Source: a virus
Taxonomy: Duplodnaviria; Caudoviricetes
Virus record (IMG/VR): IMGVR_UViG_3300018917_000004
Coordinates: 1 to 52,415 of that record
DNA: 52,415 nucleotides
Strand: one strand, 5' to 3'
This document shows, one piece after another, positions 4,000 through 46,914 of the stretch (the stretch's first letter is position 1; every line of letters starts with the position of its first letter). The notes below the pieces were generated by a model that was given only the letters and a program-made list of their open reading frames with translations, was not told where the DNA came from and did not search any database. The translations under genes and the position numbers were made by a program.

Positions 4000-4017
4000 G
4001 TAATGGTAAGCGCTAGC

Positions 4018-4662
4018 TTACCCTAGTGTACCCGTGCCGTCATATTTAAACACAGGCTCACCTAGGGTACTGTAACCCAGTAGGAAACCTTGATACACTA
4101 CTTTACCTGATACTACCGCCGCACTGTAATTCCTGATTGACCTCTGGGCCTCTAGCCACTTAGGGGAGAACCGGGCAACACTCAGAGGCACGCGGACGTA
4201 ATAGCGTAGCTTAGGTGTCCCAAATTTACCCGGTAGCGTAAAGGGTAACCTGAGGTCGGCATCTTGCCATAGTTGATATGGTATGGCCTGTATGTCTAAG
4301 ACGCGCCTAAGGGCCGCTAGGGTGCCTATGTGGTTGAATAGCCAGTAGGACGCCGCTATCATGCCCCGTTTAACATCAGGGTGCCACTGGGTATCCCAAT
4401 ACTCATCAGCTAACCCTACTAACCACGCTAGGAAATCTAGGCTACTATCGGCCGCAGTTTCAACTTGTAGTTCTTTGTAGTACTGTTGCAACAAGGTGCT
4501 AGTGGCGGTTAAGTTTTCATCAGCCCAAATGGTTAGCCAATCGGTAACCTCATTATTCTGATAGCCTTCCGCTGGTAACCGGGCATAAACAGGCCTACCA
4601 ATGGCCCATGCTTCCTTAGCCCCTGTTACCCCTTGGTCAATTAGCATAACCTTATTTACCAC
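4018..4662 (-). CDS. Baseplate wedge protein (P2 gpI-like)
   Basis: LDFLAWLVGL..WDTQW..KRGMI..IGTLAALRRVL pattern. Confidence 0.7.
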   Translation of the reverse strand: MVNKVMLIDQGVTGAKEAWAIGRPVYARLPAEGYQNNEVTDWLTIWADENLTATSTLLQQYYKELQVETAADSSLDFLAWLVGLADEYWDTQWHPDVKRGMIAASYWLFNHIGTLAALRRVLDIQAIPYQLWQDADLRLPFTLPGKFGTPKLRYYVRVPLSVARFSPKWLEAQRSIRNYSAAVVSGKVVYQGFLLGYSTLGEPVFKYDGTGTLG

Positions 4663-4752
4663 TTTGTTTACTATATAGCTATATAGTTAATAATTTGCCT
4701 TACGGTGCCTAAGAAAACTAAATGCACTTTAAGGTACACTCTGCTACCTTCG

Positions 4753-4845
4753 CACACACAGTGGTACCACTTTTTATGATTGAACTACAACCCGCACTGG
4801 CACTAGGTCTTACCGTTTACTACGTATGGTACCATATGGTACCAC
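4753..4845. repeat. GTGGTACCAC palindrome cluster A
   Basis: CACACACAGTGGTACCACTTTT shared with 19335-19356; tandem ATGGTACCA at 4826 and 4836. Confidence 0.75.
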
Positions 4846-4951
4846 GTATCAAAGTATACCCGGTATACGTAAGGGTAAATGAGGGCATTAAGAGACCGCG
4901 ATAACACCTGTACTACTTCATAACTATCAAGTAATATAAGGTATAAAAGTG

Positions 4952-4980
4952 AACCCCTGTATCATTGTGATAACAGGGGT
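4952..4980. terminator. Terminator-like hairpin containing TGTGATAACA
   Basis: ACCCCTGT...ACAGGGGT just downstream of the 16-aa ORF. Confidence 0.55.
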
Positions 4981-4996
4981 CATTGTGGGTTAGAGG

Positions 4997-5047
4997 TTAA
5001 TCACGGCCACTGCCGCGACTGTCGTCTTCAGGGTCAATGAATATCAT
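4997..5047 (-). CDS. 16-aa PatS/PatX-like peptide MIFIDPEDDSRGSGRD
   Basis: Manual translation, ATG 5047 to TAA 4997, ending RGSGR-D. Starts 11 nt after the upstream stop and is followed by a hairpin. Confidence 0.55.
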   Translation of the reverse strand: MIFIDPEDDSRGSGRD

Positions 5048-5058
5048 TGTGATAACAA

Positions 5059-5232
5059 CTAACTAAAGTGTGAATAGTACTTGACGTAACAACTGTCACA
5101 ATCACCGTTACCAGGGCAATCTAGACCTAAAGGGCAACTAGAACATACTAGCGTCCTGACAACACCCAACTGACTAACGGTACCCTTAGGGGCCGCGTGT
5201 CGTACTGTTTTCATTGAGGACTTGCGAGACAT
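5059..5232 (-). CDS. 57-aa Cys-rich small protein
   Basis: MSRKSSMKTVRHAAPKGTVSQLGVVRTLVCSSCPLGLDCPGNGDCDSCYVKYYSHFS; minus-strand TATAAT at ~5260-5265. Confidence 0.55.
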   Translation of the reverse strand: MSRKSSMKTVRHAAPKGTVSQLGVVRTLVCSSCPLGLDCPGNGDCDSCYVKYYSHFS

Positions 5233-5270
5233 AATAGTGACCTAAGAAACAATACTTTTATTATATACTA

Positions 5271-5293
5271 AAATACCCCGGTTTCCCAGGGTT
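5271..5293 (-). terminator. Intrinsic terminator
   Basis: Minus strand reads ACCCTGG-GAAA-CCGGGGT-ATTT. Confidence 0.6.
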
Positions 5294-5294
5294 C

Positions 5295-6240
5295 ATTAGG
5301 ATATTTAGTTCACTGCGAGGTTATTTGATGCCCTCTAGCCTTCCCTATTGCTTACTAGGCGTGTCAGTGACTCATCGTTGAGTCTAACAGAGACCGTTGG
5401 CTCATGATAGTCGAATATGGGTTCTCAGTTGCCCTACCTGCTCGGTTGTATAGTTTTCACTATTCGCTAGAAGTGGCGTTATTGACCTACGCTCACATTG
5501 AGCCGTTATTATTCACCCTAGCGCATCGTGGCTTTATGGGCCATTACTTCACCTTTTAGACCGTTAGTATCACCATCGCCCTACGTTGCACTACGGGCCT
5601 AAGTTCAAGATATTACTTCGAGTACTTAGAGCCGTTAGGCTCATTGGGGTCATAGCGTTGGCCGGTACTTCTTAAGAGCCGCGTGTTTCCTACGTTCTAT
5701 GATGCATCGCTGCATTGCACGGCTTGCCAAGGACATTTAAGTTATGCAAGTATTCTTATCTGGCATGGTAACCAAATATCAAACCGATTGCTACCAGTAC
5801 CTTAGAGGCCGTGACCACTCTGAGGTATTGATTGCTTCGGTGTGCCTTGTGCCCTTATTGGCATCAGTGCGACTGTTTCACTCTTGGGTAACTGTACTCA
5901 CTAAGGAGTCACGGTCACATGGTAGGTATAATTACTTACGAGTTAGTTAGGTCTCATCAGTGCGCCGGTTGGCTTACGTGTCAACACAACAGAGCCGGTT
6001 ATCACTGAATCTACTGAAAGCCTTAGGGTAATTAAGGCGGTTGGTGTTACTTCGTGTCTATAAGGGGTTATCGGTGAGCCTATTAGCGACCTATGCGAAC
6101 AGCTATCCTATCGTCAAAGCGTGGACTCTAGCAACTCGGTCAAGCTCGTGATGTTCCCTAGGCGACTCTAGGTAACGAGTGGTACTTGGTGCGACTGTGG
6201 CCTTCTGAGCTTCGAGTCTTGGTTAACCTTGTTTCCTCTC
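5295..6240 (+). ncRNA. Putative large structured RNA (~950 nt)
   Basis: No credible ORF; dense stems whose wobble pairs are G-U on the + strand. Strand assignment is tentative. Confidence 0.5.
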
Positions 6241-6248
6241 ATGTCACT

Positions 6249-6277
6249 AATATAACGCTATTCGCCCTAGTGTGCAA
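6249..6277 (-). promoter_or_regulatory. Sigma70-type promoter
   Basis: TTGCAC-17-TATATT pointing into the non-coding region. Confidence 0.65.
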
Positions 6278-6464
6278 CCTTTTAACCATCATTGTTAATT
6301 ATGTGTACGCAGGTTAGCTATAAAGCACTTTAATATAATTGTGATAACAAAGCTGCGCTTTAAGACCTAATTTAATTCATGTGATAATGTGATAACAAAA
6401 GTTAACTATATATAAATGAGGATAAAAGAGCCGTAAGGCTCATTGATAGAAACAGAGGTAAGCG

Positions 6465-7853
6465 ATGACCGTTATACAGTGCAAATTATATAGCAGTGGC
6501 AATGTGCCCTTAGTTGGCTATGTCGCCGTGACGCTTTCGGGCCGTGTGGTCAATACAGATACTAACAGCATCTTGGTGCCTCGTACCGATAAGTACCCCT
6601 TGGTAGCCGGTGCCGTCAATATCACCTTAGAGCCAACTGAAGATGACAGAACTACTTATAAATTCGAGATATACCATACGGAACAGGTGACCCCTGAGGC
6701 GACTGAGGACAACCCTACGCCATCGCCTATTACCGTTGAAAGCTTGGTTGACGCATTCTACGCAATGGTGCCTGATTACCTTACGCCTATCAAGTTAACT
6801 CAGCTAGCAAGGCAGACAGGTATCACTAGGGACTCAATGGATACTAGTTTAGTCACCGTGATTAAAAGGTTGATTGCTGACCCTGAGTTCTGGCAGGCCG
6901 CTAATACTAACCTGTTTCGCGTTAAAGGTGTGTATAATACAGCGTTCAGTTATATAAACGGGGACGTGGTTAACTTTGATGGCTCAGCGTGGATATGTGT
7001 GACACCTAACGCCATAACGGGCCAGAGTCCCCTACAATACCCAGGTGGTTGGCGGTTACTAGTAAGTAAAGGGGATACAGGGGCAGGGGTGACCGGCAAT
7101 ACAACTGCGTATGACAAGGATATTTGGGTAGATAATGTGGCACCGGGCCGCGTGGCCGTGAAGAATATTATTGAACAATTAGCCCGGAAGACTGACGTGG
7201 CACTGTTAGCCCCGATAGCCTCAGCTAACCTGGTGACGCCTAATCGCACAACTGACCCTTTGCTAACTGATAGGTCATCACAGATACCTACTACCAACTG
7301 GACACAAGCGCTGCTAGATGTCATGAGGAAGGCCTTGATACCAGTGGGGATGATAGGTGAATTCTTTAGTACAGCGGTGCCTACAGGATGGCTACAGTGT
7401 GATGGTAGGGTACTGGTTAGAGCAAGTTACCCGGCGCTATTCGCAGTACTCAGTACATCAGCTAATACTGGTGGCGAGTTAGCCACAGAGTTTAGGTTGC
7501 CTGATATGCGAGGTAGGGTATTGGTGGGCCTAGATGACATGACAACAGCACGAGGGGCCGCTAGTCGCATTGTACCGACTAATACCCTGGGGGCCTCTGG
7601 GGGCACACAGAAGCATCAATTAACTACCGCTGAGTTACCTAGCCACTCGCATAACCTATTCGGCTCAACTTACTATAACGGTGATTATTATGCCAGTGGC
7701 TCAGTGATAGCCGGTTACAACGCTAACAGAGGCCTTGTCAATAATAACCCTGGTGATACCTCAGCAGCTACAGTAACAACTGGTAGTAACACGGCTCATA
7801 ACATCATGCAACCATACATCAGTATTGTGTTTGCCATTTACACCGGTTTGTAA
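6465..7853 (+). CDS. Tail fibre protein with tail-collar domain
   Basis: Collar motif IPVGMIG..PTGWLQCDG..YPALFAVL..FRLPDMRGR, C-terminal AHNIMQPY, and a YxxGDVV..G..WIC module. Confidence 0.85.
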   Translation: MTVIQCKLYSSGNVPLVGYVAVTLSGRVVNTDTNSILVPRTDKYPLVAGAVNITLEPTEDDRTTYKFEIYHTEQVTPEATEDNPTPSPITVESLVDAFYAMVPDYLTPIKLTQLARQTGITRDSMDTSLVTVIKRLIADPEFWQAANTNLFRVKGVYNTAFSYINGDVVNFDGSAWICVTPNAITGQSPLQYPGGWRLLVSKGDTGAGVTGNTTAYDKDIWVDNVAPGRVAVKNIIEQLARKTDVALLAPIASANLVTPNRTTDPLLTDRSSQIPTTNWTQALLDVMRKALIPVGMIGEFFSTAVPTGWLQCDGRVLVRASYPALFAVLSTSANTGGELATEFRLPDMRGRVLVGLDDMTTARGAASRIVPTNTLGASGGTQKHQLTTAELPSHSHNLFGSTYYNGDYYASGSVIAGYNANRGLVNNNPGDTSAATVTTGSNTAHNIMQPYISIVFAIYTGL

Positions 7854-7917
7854 TTTGTTATCACATTATCACACGAGTTAACTAAGTATAAATAGTAGCA
7901 TTTAAGGATGAAATAGC

Positions 7918-10741: not shown

Positions 10742-10813
10742 TTCAGTACCTTTGTGTGATAATGTGATAACAGTGTAATGAGGTATAGAAGGGGGCCGGG
10801 TGGCCCCTAGTTG

Positions 10814-19496: not shown

Positions 19497-20663
19497 CTAG
19501 TCAGGGTCATTTAGGAGTAATGGTGTAAAGGTGCTACTTACACCTCTTGGGTCAACTAGGGTAATTGAGAGTTCAATAAGGTTAGGTGAGGTGTACCGTT
19601 GAGGCATAGGGTAATTTACGGTATCGAGGTTCACAGTGACGTATTGAATACCAGTGATACCCGGCACGGCCCTAATGATATACTCAAGCTCCTTAATGCG
19701 AAGCGTGGCCCCCGTAGTGTAATTAGATGGCTTAAGGTAGGCCACAATGGTACTAAATACGTCATCAGATAATTCAGGTGAGATTTGGGAGGTCTCAAGG
19801 ACACAAGAGACACTAACGTCAATGAGTTCAACCGGCGAGACCCACAAGGCGCTACCAGTGAAAACCAGTGGCAATAGTTCAGCCCTAATGACACTACAGA
19901 CATCAGGGCTAGCAGGGTTACCGAGGGCATCAACGACAAATAGATGCACATGGCCTAATGAGCCGTCCTGTTTAGCTTGGTTCATCGTAGGGATAGCTAA
20001 GGCCTTACTACCGTACCCTAGGATATCTTGGGCCGCGCTTTCATAGTCGGCTAGGGTCACCAGGGTATCGCGTCGCCTAAGTGCCTCTTGGCCCCTACGC
20101 ACTGTTTCGAGCAGTGGCTCAATGTCAGTGCCGCCAGCGATGTCCTCAGTATTATATATCATACTGACGTAATTTAAGTTAGTACTAGTTTGCACGAGGC
20201 CGAGCTTGGGCACGTTGCCAATAACGCCAACCTTAGAGGCCTGTACAGCCACGGTACCCTCATAGGCCCTGGGTGGTATAACTAACTCCTGTGTGGTCAC
20301 AAAGTACACGTTATCACGAAAGGGTATCAAGTGGCCCGCAGGTAGAATAAAGTTATCCTGTAGTGCTTGTGATAACAGTACAGTTACTTTCCCTGAGGCC
20401 TTGGTGCCAAGTGACCGTTGTACCCCAAAGAGCCTAAGTAGCTCAATAGCTAATGCAGTAGGTAGTTTATTCAGGTACCAAAATAACTCAGCAATAGCGA
20501 ACACTTCACCCGTTAGCACCCCGTTAGCAACAGTGGCCTTCTTAAAATCACGTAACCTATTACCACTGGCGGCGATAGTGCGGTTAACGGCCTGCTCGAA
20601 CAACTCTTGGTCATTACGGGGGTCAAGTACTACCCTAGGTAAATTAGATATCTTATATTCCAT
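19497..20663 (-). CDS. Baseplate J-like protein
   Basis: LDPRN, GTKASGKV, GGTDIE, LVTLADYE, GHVHLFV. Confidence 0.88.
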   Translation of the reverse strand: MEYKISNLPRVVLDPRNDQELFEQAVNRTIAASGNRLRDFKKATVANGVLTGEVFAIAELFWYLNKLPTALAIELLRLFGVQRSLGTKASGKVTVLLSQALQDNFILPAGHLIPFRDNVYFVTTQELVIPPRAYEGTVAVQASKVGVIGNVPKLGLVQTSTNLNYVSMIYNTEDIAGGTDIEPLLETVRRGQEALRRRDTLVTLADYESAAQDILGYGSKALAIPTMNQAKQDGSLGHVHLFVVDALGNPASPDVCSVIRAELLPLVFTGSALWVSPVELIDVSVSCVLETSQISPELSDDVFSTIVAYLKPSNYTTGATLRIKELEYIIRAVPGITGIQYVTVNLDTVNYPMPQRYTSPNLIELSITLVDPRGVSSTFTPLLLNDPD

Positions 20664-21132: not shown

Positions 21133-21831
21133 TTAGCGGCCGTCGGTAACTAAGTGGTCACCATCAGAGTCAACAGCGCCAATTACTGTAACTGGTATCT
21201 CATCAATGGTCACGTTGGTAGCTGTAAAGTTAACAGTGTCAGGTGTGACCTCGATACCGCCTACTTCGCTCAGGGTGCCATCGGGGTTAAGTTGCCCGAA
21301 TGTAATCTTGGGTGACGTGATATCAATATGGTCTTTATAAAACGTAATGGCTGACGTAAGGTAACCTACTTTAACATACTCTTCCTTAAAGCTAATCGAT
21401 GCGTCATTATACGTCAAAGTAACCTCAGGCTCCTCAAGGCCCTCACTGCCCACTGGTGCAATTAGGAAGCTAAAGGTACCCCACTCATACCGCCATACAT
21501 CCTTAGGGCCAGCAGGGTTAACTAAGTTCTGAGCAAAGCCTAGGTAGAACCCTACTTCATTTTGGTTAGCATCATTGAAGCCTACTAGCACGATATCGCC
21601 CGGTGACGGCATAGGTACGCTAAGGTGAAACCAGGGCATTATTCTAATTAGCCAATTCGACTTATTATGGCCCCCCTGATGCCCTAGGAAGACCTTAATG
21701 CGCCCTGTACCCTCAGGGTCGATATCAGGTGCCACGATACCCCACTTCAGACCTAGGGCCCTTCCTGCTAGCTCTTGGGCCACTTGTGCCGCCTTAAAGC
21801 CCTGATATATATGGTTGAATATTTCAGACAT
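21133..21831 (-). CDS. Baseplate spike (gpV/Vgr OB-fold)
   Basis: DPEGTGRIKV..SNWL..PSPGDIVLVGF; C-terminal GAVDSDGD. Confidence 0.82.
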   Translation of the reverse strand: MSEIFNHIYQGFKAAQVAQELAGRALGLKWGIVAPDIDPEGTGRIKVFLGHQGGHNKSNWLIRIMPWFHLSVPMPSPGDIVLVGFNDANQNEVGFYLGFAQNLVNPAGPKDVWRYEWGTFSFLIAPVGSEGLEEPEVTLTYNDASISFKEEYVKVGYLTSAITFYKDHIDITSPKITFGQLNPDGTLSEVGGIEVTPDTVNFTATNVTIDEIPVTVIGAVDSDGDHLVTDGR

Positions 21832-22148: not shown

Positions 22149-22210
22149 AGATGCCCTAATGTACTTGTGATAACGAGGGTAGTAGGGGCCGTGATGGCCC
22201 CTGTGGTTAA

Positions 22211-23045: not shown

Positions 23046-23540
23046 ATGAGCGTTAATAGGAGGTTACGTGTAGTTGATGCGATAGGGGCCGTGATGAGCC
23101 AGCAAGAGGCTATGGTTTTAGGTAAGACAAAGCTACACGGTAGCGTAGGGTACCCTGAGTTAAAAGTGAGTCAAGACCTGCTCGAACTGCTGATTACATT
23201 GAACCCTAAATTTAACCAGAATAATACGGTACGTGAGGCCGCGACGCCAGCAGGTAAAGCTGATATCCTAACGCCACACGAGGTAATCGAGGTTAAAAAG
23301 GGTAGCGATTATAAACACGCAGTAGGCCAGGTGTTATTCTATCACGCACATTTAAAACAGGTGTACCCTAAGGCACAGATGGCCGTTGCTTTGTATGATG
23401 TATCTATAAATAACCTTGGGGTAATCGTGACCGGCTTTCAATCGCTGAACATCAACCTATACATTCTATACGATAAAACATGGTACTACTTGCCACATAA
23501 GGTAAAACGTGTTACTAAACGTAAACCAGTCACACCATAA
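23046..23540 (+). CDS. PD-(D/E)XK-fold nuclease-like protein
   Basis: REAATPAGKADILT..VIEVK..KHAVGQVLFY. Confidence 0.7.
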   Translation: MSVNRRLRVVDAIGAVMSQQEAMVLGKTKLHGSVGYPELKVSQDLLELLITLNPKFNQNNTVREAATPAGKADILTPHEVIEVKKGSDYKHAVGQVLFYHAHLKQVYPKAQMAVALYDVSINNLGVIVTGFQSLNINLYILYDKTWYYLPHKVKRVTKRKPVTP

Positions 23541-29293: not shown

Positions 29294-29572
29294 CTATTCT
29301 AACGTATTATACACTGATTCAGCGTAGTTGGTTAGTGCGTTCCGTGTGTTCTCTGGCATCCCGTCAGCTACCCAGAGGGTATAGGGCATATCGTCACCCT
29401 GAATTTCAATCATGAAGTACGGTGATGCACTAGGGTGCCCTCCTATCTCCATATCGTCCCATTCGATACTGATAACCTCAGCACCGATAAATGAGATGTT
29501 GGCATCTAGGTCTCTATCGTATGCACTATACAAACTATTATCTACGGGGGAATACGTTGCCATCAGGTTCAC
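29294..29572 (-). CDS. Small acidic protein, candidate immunity protein
   Basis: Directly downstream of the LHH nuclease gene; likely start is ATG 29563. Confidence 0.5.
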   Translation of the reverse strand: MNLMATYSPVDNSLYSAYDRDLDANISFIGAEVISIEWDDMEIGGHPSASPYFMIEIQGDDMPYTLWVADGMPENTRNALTNYAESVYNTLE

Positions 29573-40785: not shown

Positions 40786-40819
40786 GGTGTCTCCTAAGGG
40801 TGATAATGTGATAACAATG

Positions 40820-41870: not shown

Positions 41871-41907
41871 GTTGTCTCCTGTGTGTGTGATAATGTGATA
41901 ACAAATG

Positions 41908-45354: not shown

Positions 45355-45388
45355 AATAAATAACCCTGTATCATTGTGATAACAGGGT
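45355..45388 (-). terminator. Terminator containing TGTGATAACA
   Basis: AATAAATAACCCTGT...ACAGGGT. Confidence 0.6.
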
Positions 45389-45440: not shown

Positions 45441-45929
45441 TTAACAGTCGTTACGCAACTCATAAAGAGCGCTAGAGACCTTATCGGCAAAAGTGCGAAA
45501 AGCGTCAACACGCTGGTTAACATTACTATAGTTCCTACTGGTCTGCTCTAGTTCAGCTTGTGTCTTCTCAAGTTGCTTCAGTGTATTACTAAATGCATCA
45601 CGAGTGGCCGCCAATTCCTCTCGGACATCATTGAGCATACGTACCGCATTACAATAACGGTCATTCATGTACTCTAAATCGTCGTTTAGCTTAGCTGTCA
45701 GCTCAATGAGTTCTTTAGAATCCTCCTGTGCGTTAAGTTTCTCTGATAGCCTCATAATCTCATCAGCGGCTTTGATAGCCTCAACGCGCCATTTAGCGGC
45801 CTCATTGCGAATAAGACGGCAGATGGTATCGTGTTCTTCCTTGGTCACATACTGACCCTTGGGGCAACCATTAACCGCAGGTACATAACTTACACCATTA
45901 ATTACTACGTTATCCATGATTAACCTCAT
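45441..45929 (-). CDS. Coiled-coil hypothetical protein
   Basis: Heptad-rich ORF. Confidence 0.65.
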   Translation of the reverse strand: MRLIMDNVVINGVSYVPAVNGCPKGQYVTKEEHDTICRLIRNEAAKWRVEAIKAADEIMRLSEKLNAQEDSKELIELTAKLNDDLEYMNDRYCNAVRMLNDVREELAATRDAFSNTLKQLEKTQAELEQTSRNYSNVNQRVDAFRTFADKVSSALYELRNDC

Positions 45930-46914
45930 TTAGGTAGTTGACAATTGAGTGACCTAATGCCTTAGCGAGATTCACAGGAACAGCGTTGCCAATTTGCTTA
46001 TACTGGCTACTGTCGCTACCAGTGAACACGTAATCATCAGGGAATGTTTGTATTCTAGCATATTCTCGAACACTTAGTGGCCTAGTTTCTAATGGGTGAC
46101 ACCGTTCCGTCTTCTTACCATAGGGGGATGTCAGTAACGTCAAGGAAGGCTTAAAGCGACTAAGGCGTCTTAGTATACCAGTTGACCCGGTGCCTGTTGC
46201 ATTCCATAAGGGGCCTAGGTATTGTTGCTGCGTCTCAGGGTCTAACGATGTCCAATGCTTACCCTCAGGTACTTGTGATAACAAATCAGCCTTGGTGTTA
46301 CTGTAAGTAAAGCCGGTTGACCAAGGTACATCCTGTAGGGCATAGTTCAATAAATGGCATACCGGGGCAGGCTTTGGCCACTGAAAGACAGCGTTATCGT
46401 GACAGGTGCCCATTATGAATAACCGTTTGCGTGATTGTGGCACCTCGTAGTCAACGGCGTTCAAGAGGCGATAATCGACCTGATAGCCTAATTGTCTAAA
46501 TGCGCTAACAATTGCCATCATTGTATTGCCACCATCTTGACTAAGTAGCCCTGGCACGTTCTCAGCTAGAAACAAGGCGGGCCGTGTCTCATCAATGCAC
46601 CTTAGCATCTCGAAGAATAATAGGCCCCTAGGGTCTCTCTCGCCGTTACGTTGACCAATTAAGCTAAACGGTTGGCACGGGAAACCGCCAGTTACCACAT
46701 GAGGCCTATAGCCTTTATAATCGACCTTGGTTACATCCTGTTGCCTTACACGCCATTCTGGTCTATTATGACGTAAAGTATTACAAGCGTCCTTATTGTT
46801 CTCTACTAGTAAGGCAGGATGAATACCGGCGGCCTCAAGACCTAAAGCGAGACCTCCGGCCCCTGCGAATAACTCAATGCTGCTGTAGTCTTGTGATAAC
46901 ATGATACTACTCAT
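45910..46914 (-). CDS. C5 DNA cytosine methyltransferase
   Basis: ELFAGAGG, GGFPCQ, AENV, QSRKR, QIGNAVP. The TERCHP..RPLSVREYARIQTF region resembles the GGNCC-type (Sau96I-like) family. Confidence 0.93.
   Translation of the reverse strand: MSSIMLSQDYSSIELFAGAGGLALGLEAAGIHPALLVENNKDACNTLRHNRPEWRVRQQDVTKVDYKGYRPHVVTGGFPCQPFSLIGQRNGERDPRGLLFFEMLRCIDETRPALFLAENVPGLLSQDGGNTMMAIVSAFRQLGYQVDYRLLNAVDYEVPQSRKRLFIMGTCHDNAVFQWPKPAPVCHLLNYALQDVPWSTGFTYSNTKADLLSQVPEGKHWTSLDPETQQQYLGPLWNATGTGSTGILRRLSRFKPSLTLLTSPYGKKTERCHPLETRPLSVREYARIQTFPDDYVFTGSDSSQYKQIGNAVPVNLAKALGHSIVNYLNEVNHG

Follow-up and report, generated by a model that had tools for sequence, protein, structure and literature searches.

Does a 16-codon reading frame that spells RGSGR, the motif of the PatS-type peptides that act on HetR, provide a phage with a mimic of a cyanobacterial developmental signal, or is it an incidental reading of a structured RNA segment? 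The question arises from the minus strand of the window, by which we mean the whole stretch of 52,415 bp that was analyzed. Read directly from 5047 to 4997, this strand specifies MIFIDPEDDSRGSGRD*, that is, 16 codons and a stop. The codons are ATG (5047-5045) and then ATA TTC ATT GAC CCT GAA GAC GAC, followed by AGT CGC GGC AGT GGC CGT GAT and the stop TAA (4999-4997). A six-frame scan identified this frame as the sole occurrence of RG[ST]GR in all 52,415 bases. RGSGR sits one residue before the C-terminal end of the 16-aa product, and the trailing residue is Asp. The elements of the locus, all of which lie on the minus strand, are as follows.

5275-5292, minus strand: terminator-like stem-loop with a 7-bp stem, a GAAA loop, and a T-rich tail (scan and sequence); it closes the ORF-less stretch upstream, just before TATAAT
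5260-5265, minus strand: TATAAT, a -10-like hexamer, read directly, 27 nt upstream of the 57-aa ORF
5059-5232, minus strand: 57-codon, Cys-rich orphan ORF ending in TAG, of doubtful coding status (ORF list, homology searches, and codon score)
5042-5056, minus strand: copy of the repeated 15-mer GTTATCACAATGATA, positions 10 to 12 of which are the peptide ATG (repeat scan)
4997-5047, minus strand: the 16-codon frame plus stop (direct reading and six-frame scan)
5021-5059, minus strand: predicted stem-loop 1, which holds the motif copy and pairs the AUG (CAAUGA with UCAUUG; RNA fold)
4999-5020, minus strand: predicted stem-loop 2, with a 9-bp stem, a 4-nt loop, and -13.4 kcal/mol, which is exactly codons S-R-G-S-G-R-D plus the first base of the stop (RNA fold)
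4952-4981, minus strand: stem-loop 3, terminator-like and followed by TTCACTTTTAT (RNA fold), its apical part being the second exact copy of the 15-mer (4960-4974)
4018-4662, minus strand: the next downstream gene, coding for a P2 gpI-like baseplate protein (PF09684; E value, 4e-11)

The small unit that these elements form sits between two divergent tail-gene blocks. The preliminary description had reported a short minus-strand ORF of PatS-like length with a near-terminal RGSGR, together with a TATAAT, a 57-aa ORF, an 11-nt gap, and a hairpin downstream, and the sequence confirms each of them (TATAAT at 5265-5260, ORF at 5232-5059, gap at 5058-5048, and stem-loop at 4981-4952). No -35 partner of the hexamer was detected, as a promoter scan gave no full two-hexamer promoter there. 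The stem-loop at 4981-4952 (-17 kcal/mol; z, -4.07; T-rich tail) combines a G+C-rich stem-loop, a T-run, and a position at the end of a unit, as in intrinsic terminators. It was omitted by our simple terminator scan because its bulged stem falls outside the pattern of that scan. Run contigs are identical to the window in the locus of the 16-codon frame. No variants were found in the runs that hold this DNA, all of which belong to one study; run X2 has no coverage over 4913-5114. No RNA run is listed among those holding the DNA of the window.

The window corresponds to the whole record, one linear contig with a CheckV completeness of 100; the genome, complete at 52.4 kb and myovirus-like, comes from a biocrust metagenome. 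Its DNA is present in three runs only, all from one biocrust-metagenome study, and one of these runs may be its source. Pfam searches identified a P2 gpI-like baseplate protein, a tail-collar/Gp10_C fiber, a T4-type large terminase, an M23 peptidase protein, a 5'-3' exonuclease, a family A polymerase with a mitochondrial-type exonuclease domain, and a C5 cytosine methylase. Relatives of the polymerase were detected in 13 of 50,697 phage records, eleven of them cyanophages, at about 25% identity. The large terminase (TerL) and the portal protein are 39% and 30% identical, respectively, to those of Leptolyngbya phage Lbo402-yong5 (Lbo402). The next matches of these two proteins are in Microcystis phage Mic1 and in the Anabaena, Nostoc, and Dolichospermum phages A-1(L), N1, YongM, Elbi, and Dfl-JY23. 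By our count, about 14 ORFs of the window match Lbo402 by tblastn, including those for sheath, tape measure, baseplate wedge, capsid, portal, and terminase.

The avoidance of restriction sites is an independent pointer to the host. The window contains no GATC (120 expected), TTCGAA (6.0 expected), or TGCGCA (4.8 expected), and it is equally devoid of CYCGRG (26.6 expected) and GGWCC (35.7 expected), the AvaI and AvaII sites. ACCGGT occurs twice versus 28 times expected. Phages A-1(L), N1, and Lbo402 likewise have no CYCGRG, GGWCC, or TTCGAA, and Lbo402 has no GATC either (261 expected). Helper plasmids for conjugation into cyanobacteria carry the AvaI, AvaII, and AvaIII methylases, according to excerpts of PMC8067306. 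On the basis of gene relatives and shared site avoidance, the host is likely a cyanobacterium and probably a filamentous one, in keeping with the earlier assignment of this DNA to a cyanophage. Since nearly every filamentous cyanobacterium, whether or not it forms heterocysts, carries hetR and patX (excerpts of PMC11298460 and PMC12756182), the host, if filamentous, probably has HetR. Within the phage genome itself, no Peptidase_S48/HetR match was found. No spacer-like match emerged when 50 kb of the window was compared by megablast with 72,556 plasmids. The C5 cytosine DNA methyltransferase (45910-46914, minus strand; PF00145; E value, 5e-78) has its closest plasmid and phage relatives in taxonomically scattered sources, which gives no clue to the host. 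HIP1 sites (GCGATCGC) number 39 to 42 in A-1(L) and N1, and none is present in the window or in Lbo402. No tRNAs were found in the window.

How often a frame of this kind would arise by chance was estimated from 3,000 order-1 Markov genomes with the same composition as the window. RG[ST]GR in any form occurred 0.289 times per Markov genome, which agrees with the roughly 0.2 to 0.3 per 52 kb in six frames given in the preliminary description. The frequency fell to 0.023 per genome when the motif had to lie within an ATG frame of no more than 25 aa and to 0.0053 when it also had to lie within two residues of the stop. The full PatS-like layout is therefore rarer than chance for a single genome, with criteria that were set post hoc and a scan that spans very many windows. 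Comparator loci totaling 556 kb contained two RG[ST]GR and no PatS-like frame. Lbo402 has a single RGSGR, intergenic at 29545 on the plus strand; its frame runs 29 codons from stop to stop, contains no Met, and has the motif at mid-frame, and it illustrates the chance background.

Codon usage also favors a gene. The 16-codon frame scored 0.604 per codon, above all 142 spurious ATG frames of 12 to 22 codons and above 96.6% of the 16-codon windows taken from real genes; five acidic codons, all outside the motif, account for this high score. The absence of a Shine-Dalgarno sequence was rejected as an argument against translation: it is uninformative, because a core Shine-Dalgarno sequence precedes only 13 of the 43 long ORFs of the window.

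Both the layout and the coding-like codon score speak against an incidental frame and for a HetR mimic. On that reading, the frame would be translated from a read-through transcript starting at the TATAAT or by reinitiation 11 nt past the 57-codon ORF. Peptidases would then trim the product to xRGSGR, which would bind the HetR hood domain and free HetR from DNA, as the PatS, PatX, and HetN peptides do, thereby blocking heterocysts or other HetR-controlled development in infected and neighboring cells. The probable cyanobacterial host, in which hetR is plausible, and the uniqueness of a near-terminal RGSGR in the genome are consistent with this, and we nevertheless regard it as unlikely for the reasons given below.

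An acidic run precedes RGSGR in PatS (CDERGSGR), and the acidic run of the phage frame recalls it, which again argues against an incidental origin. The N-terminal half of PatS appears to differ from that of the frame. PatS of Anabaena/Nostoc sp. PCC 7120 has a 17-aa precursor compared with the 16 aa encoded here, both with an exact RGSGR near the C terminus and acidic residues before it (size and motif role, with the active forms PatS5, PatS6, and PatS8, are taken from excerpts of PMC12756182 and PMC4133259). With its 16 codons, the frame also falls within the 13 to 17 aa of a short product with its own start codon, yet its ATG belongs to a repeated 15-mer. In PatS, RGSGR forms the last five residues, whereas the frame has an extra C-terminal Asp, and the residue before the motif is Ser in the frame and Glu in PatS. 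The exchange appears acceptable, because HetR contacts the residue before RGSGR through its main chain only (excerpts of PMC4649674). The trailing Asp, in contrast, would probably need to be removed for HetR binding, since in the solved complex the C-terminal carboxyl group of PatS6 is near Arg223 of HetR, whose charge complements it (excerpts of PMC4649674). Trimming on both sides does occur in nature, as HetN carries the motif internally (excerpts of PMC7761841). PatS is encoded in a hetR-bearing cyanobacterium and expressed from a DIF1-type or HetR-dependent promoter, whereas the frame is phage encoded and has neither: the phage genome contains no DIF1 motif TCCGGA and no HetR-site-like palindrome (GAGGGG..CCCCTC), both of which count against a HetR mimic.

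PatX resembles the frame in having RG[ST]GR at or near the C terminus of a small product and in being present in nonheterocystous filamentous hosts like those likely for this phage. According to excerpts of PMC12756182, PatX begins with a Sec signal sequence and is exported, and PatP cleaves it to HRGTGR. The 16-aa product (MIFIDPEDD...) has no room for a signal peptide. PatX co-occurs with hetR and often adjoins it, unlike the frame, whose genome lacks a HetR match. A looser parallel is arbitrium: AimP of Bacillus phages is a phage precursor that is processed to a hexapeptide acting on a transcription regulator. AimP acts on a phage receptor to decide lysogeny, whereas the reading considered here would be mimicry of a host developmental signal; the likeness lies in a phage peptide directed at a transcription regulator, with no sequence relation. 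In a literature search on RGSGR in cyanophages, we found no report of a phage-encoded RGSGR peptide.

The start codon of the frame is not a free-standing one but part of a genome-wide repeat. The 8-mer GTTATCAC is present 64 times in the window (24 copies on the plus strand and 40 on the minus strand), compared with roughly 1.6 copies expected of a random 8-mer by our own arithmetic. The 15-mer around it was found 38 times when up to three mismatches were allowed, versus 1.87 expected, and three times exactly, at 5042-5056, at 4960-4974 (82 nt downstream), and at 45369-45383. An ATG occupies the equivalent position in five copies of the 8-mer. The other four open frames of 11, 12, 25, and 50 codons; the 11- and 12-codon frames fall within terminator-like stems, and the 50-codon frame runs antisense to the polymerase gene. 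An ATG supplied by such a repeat argues for an incidental frame.

The placement of the word is uneven: 38 of the 64 copies fall in the 26% of the genome that long ORFs leave uncovered, and the remaining 26 are within such ORFs, where 13 of the 16 sense copies share one frame. Two forms can be distinguished. The open form, TTGTTATCACAWTRTCACA, precedes co-oriented gene starts, and 13 of the 25 open-type intergenic copies lie 1 to 50 nt upstream of a co-oriented ORF start. The other form lies inside terminator-like stems after genes, where two of the three exact 15-mer copies (4960-4974 and 45369-45383) make up the apical parts of the stems. Copies are found, for example, at 6382-6396 (minus), 7857-7871 (plus), 10757-10771 (minus), 40801-40815 (minus), and 41888-41902 (minus). 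The motif-bearing stem recurs after other genes, e.g., after 45441-45929 and after gpI. By our reading of the folds, a short G+C stem directly 5' of the motif-bearing terminator stem accompanies 4 of the 11 hairpin-type copies (3972, 4960, 23558, and 45369), and this recurrence likewise favors an incidental frame. The stems resemble intrinsic (Rho-independent) terminators and the tandem 3' stem-loops of phage units, with the same G+C-rich stems and T-rich tails at unit ends. Unlike ordinary intrinsic terminators, they carry a phage-specific 8-mer that is also found before and inside genes. Taken as a whole, GTTATCAC probably acts as a signal at the DNA level, such as a promoter or operator, that is specific to this phage.

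Such a role opens another reading, in which the motif copy at 5056-5042 would be a promoter or operator and, with the terminator at 4981-4952, would define a separate small RNA of about 90 nt, made up of stem-loop 2 and the terminator stem and functional as RNA. The frequent position of open-type copies shortly before co-oriented ORFs would fit a transcription or translation-start signal, and the segment is strongly structured. We nonetheless consider a separate small RNA improbable. The copy at 5056-5042 is of the ATGATA variant seen in terminator stems, whereas the copies before genes have ATATCA or TTATCA; many copies of the word lie inside long ORFs; and no Rfam family matched the segment, neither at the gathering cutoff nor at E values of up to 1.

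Related cyanophages each have a heavily repeated word of their own. Counted on both strands, GTCCACTT occurs 42 times in Lbo402-yong5, TGACTCCG(GGG) 92 times in A-1(L), and TGATTCCG(GGG) 93 times in N1. A second overrepresented 8-mer of the window, CAGGGGCC, has 23 copies, often as TCAGGGGCC (e.g., 22185-22203), which we placed mostly inside ORFs, on both strands, on the ORF map. A further word, around CGCAGTRC (in GCGCACGCAGTGCC and GCGTACGCAGTACAC), is located just upstream of several start codons, for instance those of 19497-20663 (minus), 21133-21831 (minus), and 23046-23540 (plus), and near some terminator stems.

The predicted structure of the segment was evaluated next to its coding content. 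Positions 5075-4935 (141 nt) fold into three stems at -41.6 kcal/mol, compared with an average of -25.0 kcal/mol for shuffled sequences (z, -4.49), and none of 200 shuffles was as stable. The codons for SRGSGRD fold at -13.4 kcal/mol, whereas 5,000 synonymous recodings weighted by the codon usage of the phage averaged -3.9 kcal/mol and only 0.9% of them were as stable; for the whole 141 nt, 2.2% of 1,500 recodings reached the stability of the real sequence. The nucleotide sequence thus looks chosen for pairing, a property that the peptide by itself would not demand. Stem 2 as an automatic result of encoding RGSGR was rejected on the same numbers. Both the fold of the region and the rank of the SRGSGRD hairpin within the top 1% of recodings, as far as predicted folds go, favor an incidental frame over a HetR mimic, and so does the pairing of the AUG within stem-loop 1.

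The converse explanation, that the hairpin accounts for RGSGR, was also rejected. RG[ST]GR was encoded by only about 2 in 10,000 random G+C-rich hairpins, a rate scarcely above that of random G+C-rich 22-mers; therefore, a coincidence is still needed, and this weighs against an incidental frame. Membership of hairpin 2 in a repeated hairpin family was unsupported, as only 10 of 13 bases match the hairpin at 22187 and CAGGGGCC lies mostly in ORFs, not in stems.

Translation of the frame by coupling would depend on the 57-aa ORF upstream. Among 5.8 billion proteins, this ORF had no relative but itself. A phmmer search against 1.84 billion representatives gave only four further matches; every matched protein is much longer than the ORF product, three of them matched it in several stretches, and we read these matches as compositional. 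The best score in the ESM Atlas was 0.79, below the useful range. At 0.013 per codon, the codon score of the ORF (mean for real genes, 0.29; mean for spurious ORFs, -0.026) fell below every one of the 356 length-matched real-gene windows and within the spread of spurious ORFs. The 57-aa ORF thus looks noncoding by these measures, and its coding status is doubtful, which also favors an incidental frame. Fusion of the 16-aa frame to this ORF by frameshifting would have to do without a slippery site and pass a stop in between. The "clean operon context" claimed in the preliminary description stands insofar as a promoter-like hexamer, an ORF, a gap, and a hairpin are present. It is weakened by the orphan nature of the ORF, by an ATG that lies in a repeated 15-mer, and by RGSGR codons that form a hairpin. 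The promoter-ORF-terminator look of a phage accessory insert, for its part, remains a point against an incidental frame.

The same elements bear on translation of the frame for a purpose to which RGSGR and HetR would be irrelevant, as another micropeptide or as a short coupled frame that would influence how the upstream message terminates or how stable it is. A stop codon followed by an 11-nt gap suits reinitiation, the codon score is coding-like, and a ribosome could open the stems in an attenuator-like arrangement. However, there is no target to regulate within 290 nt downstream of the frame, the terminator comes at once, and the upstream ORF is itself doubtful. We consider a translated frame of this kind very unlikely.

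Relatives of the locus were sought at the DNA and protein levels. Positions 4000-6500 had no DNA match among the 50,697 phage records, and tblastn of the 21-codon stop-to-stop frame against phages gave no match at E values of up to 10. Viral contigs scanned with gpI, TerL, the tail fiber, and a three-sequence gpI alignment contained no syntenic relative; 32 tail-fiber loci in them match the collar domain only. Five loci in genome contigs and three in metagenome contigs gave matches of 21 to 31 residues in unrelated organisms, which we judged spurious. Two gpI relatives with 59 to 65% identity are located on contigs of 1.5 to 1.8 kb and align only from residue 29 and residue 82 of gpI; both were probably truncated where the contig ends. 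Lbo402, the closest relative, has no equivalent cassette: its gpI is followed directly by the tail-fiber gene. Because the two genes adjoin there, the 1.8-kb stretch 4663-6464 is peculiar to the phage described here. Lbo402 also has no PatS-like frame, its sole RGSGR being the mid-frame one without Met. In A-1(L) and N1, which are phages of Nostoc PCC 7120, the model organism for heterocyst formation, RG[ST]GR was found in no frame, so an RGSGR mimic is not a general trait of such phages. The lack of an equivalent in Lbo402 and of the motif in the two Nostoc phages favors an incidental frame and counts against a HetR mimic.

Considering these lines of evidence together, we give a slightly better than even chance to the 16-codon frame being an incidental reading frame across a noncoding, structured 3' RNA segment. 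The segment at 5059-4952 (minus) would close a small phage-specific transcription unit between the two tail-gene blocks. Stem 1 would bear the GTTATCAC copy that supplies the ATG, stem 2 would be a G+C-rich 9-bp stem that happens to read S-RGSGR-D, and stem 3 would be an intrinsic-terminator-like stem with another copy of the word. The repeats and the predicted folds with their statistics are direct observations; the stems would serve to terminate transcription, to affect RNA stability, or to bind proteins, and the frame would remain untranslated. Rough ratios, judged and not computed, entered this weighing. The layout was taken as about two hundred to one for a gene under the per-genome null and the codon score as about five to one for it. 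The hairpin was taken as about one to six, and the embedded, paired start as about one to two and a half, against it. The prior for any given cyanophage carrying a HetR mimic is, in our judgment, low.

At its fullest, the mimic idea would make this a lytic cyanophage of a filamentous, hetR-bearing biocrust host with a PatS-like micropeptide. In its trimmed form, xRGSGR, this peptide would inactivate HetR, the master developmental regulator of the host, not only in the infected cells but also, through diffusion, in adjacent ones, and the filament would thereby stay vegetative and susceptible. Such a scenario is a doubtful one. If true, it would be the first case of a virus that mimics a bacterial morphogen, and it would show that a pattern-forming (Turing-type) signal of bacteria can be hijacked by a virus. 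A further benefit would be a natural tool to probe the role of HetR in nonheterocystous filamentous cyanobacteria, which is called a mystery in excerpts of PMC11298460. The peptide idea is important if true and deserves a bench test; it is not a claim. As things are, the case warns that short frames crossing regulatory hairpins can come to spell a motif of five residues. The surroundings, namely, the genome-wide 8-mer, the total loss of GATC and of the AvaI and AvaII sites, and a 1-kb ORF-less stretch, may merit more attention than the peptide.

This stretch, which makes up most of 4663-6464, covers about 1.07 kb at 5270-6335 (minus) without any ORF in an otherwise dense genome. Each of the six frames contains all three stop codons, and none stays open for more than 69 codons. 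Its minus strand is A-rich (31.5% A), the z score of its fold is only -1.18, and it has no Rfam match. It is preceded by two open-type copies of GTTATCAC (6396-6334) and followed by the terminator-like stem at 5292-5275. Two adjacent GTA-N8-TAC palindromes of the NtcA type are located upstream of gpI at 4829-4859, one of them within GGTACCATATGGTACC, a perfect palindrome of 16 nt. The whole genome has 49 GTA-N8-TAC sites where 27 are expected, and 0 of 100 shuffles had as many.
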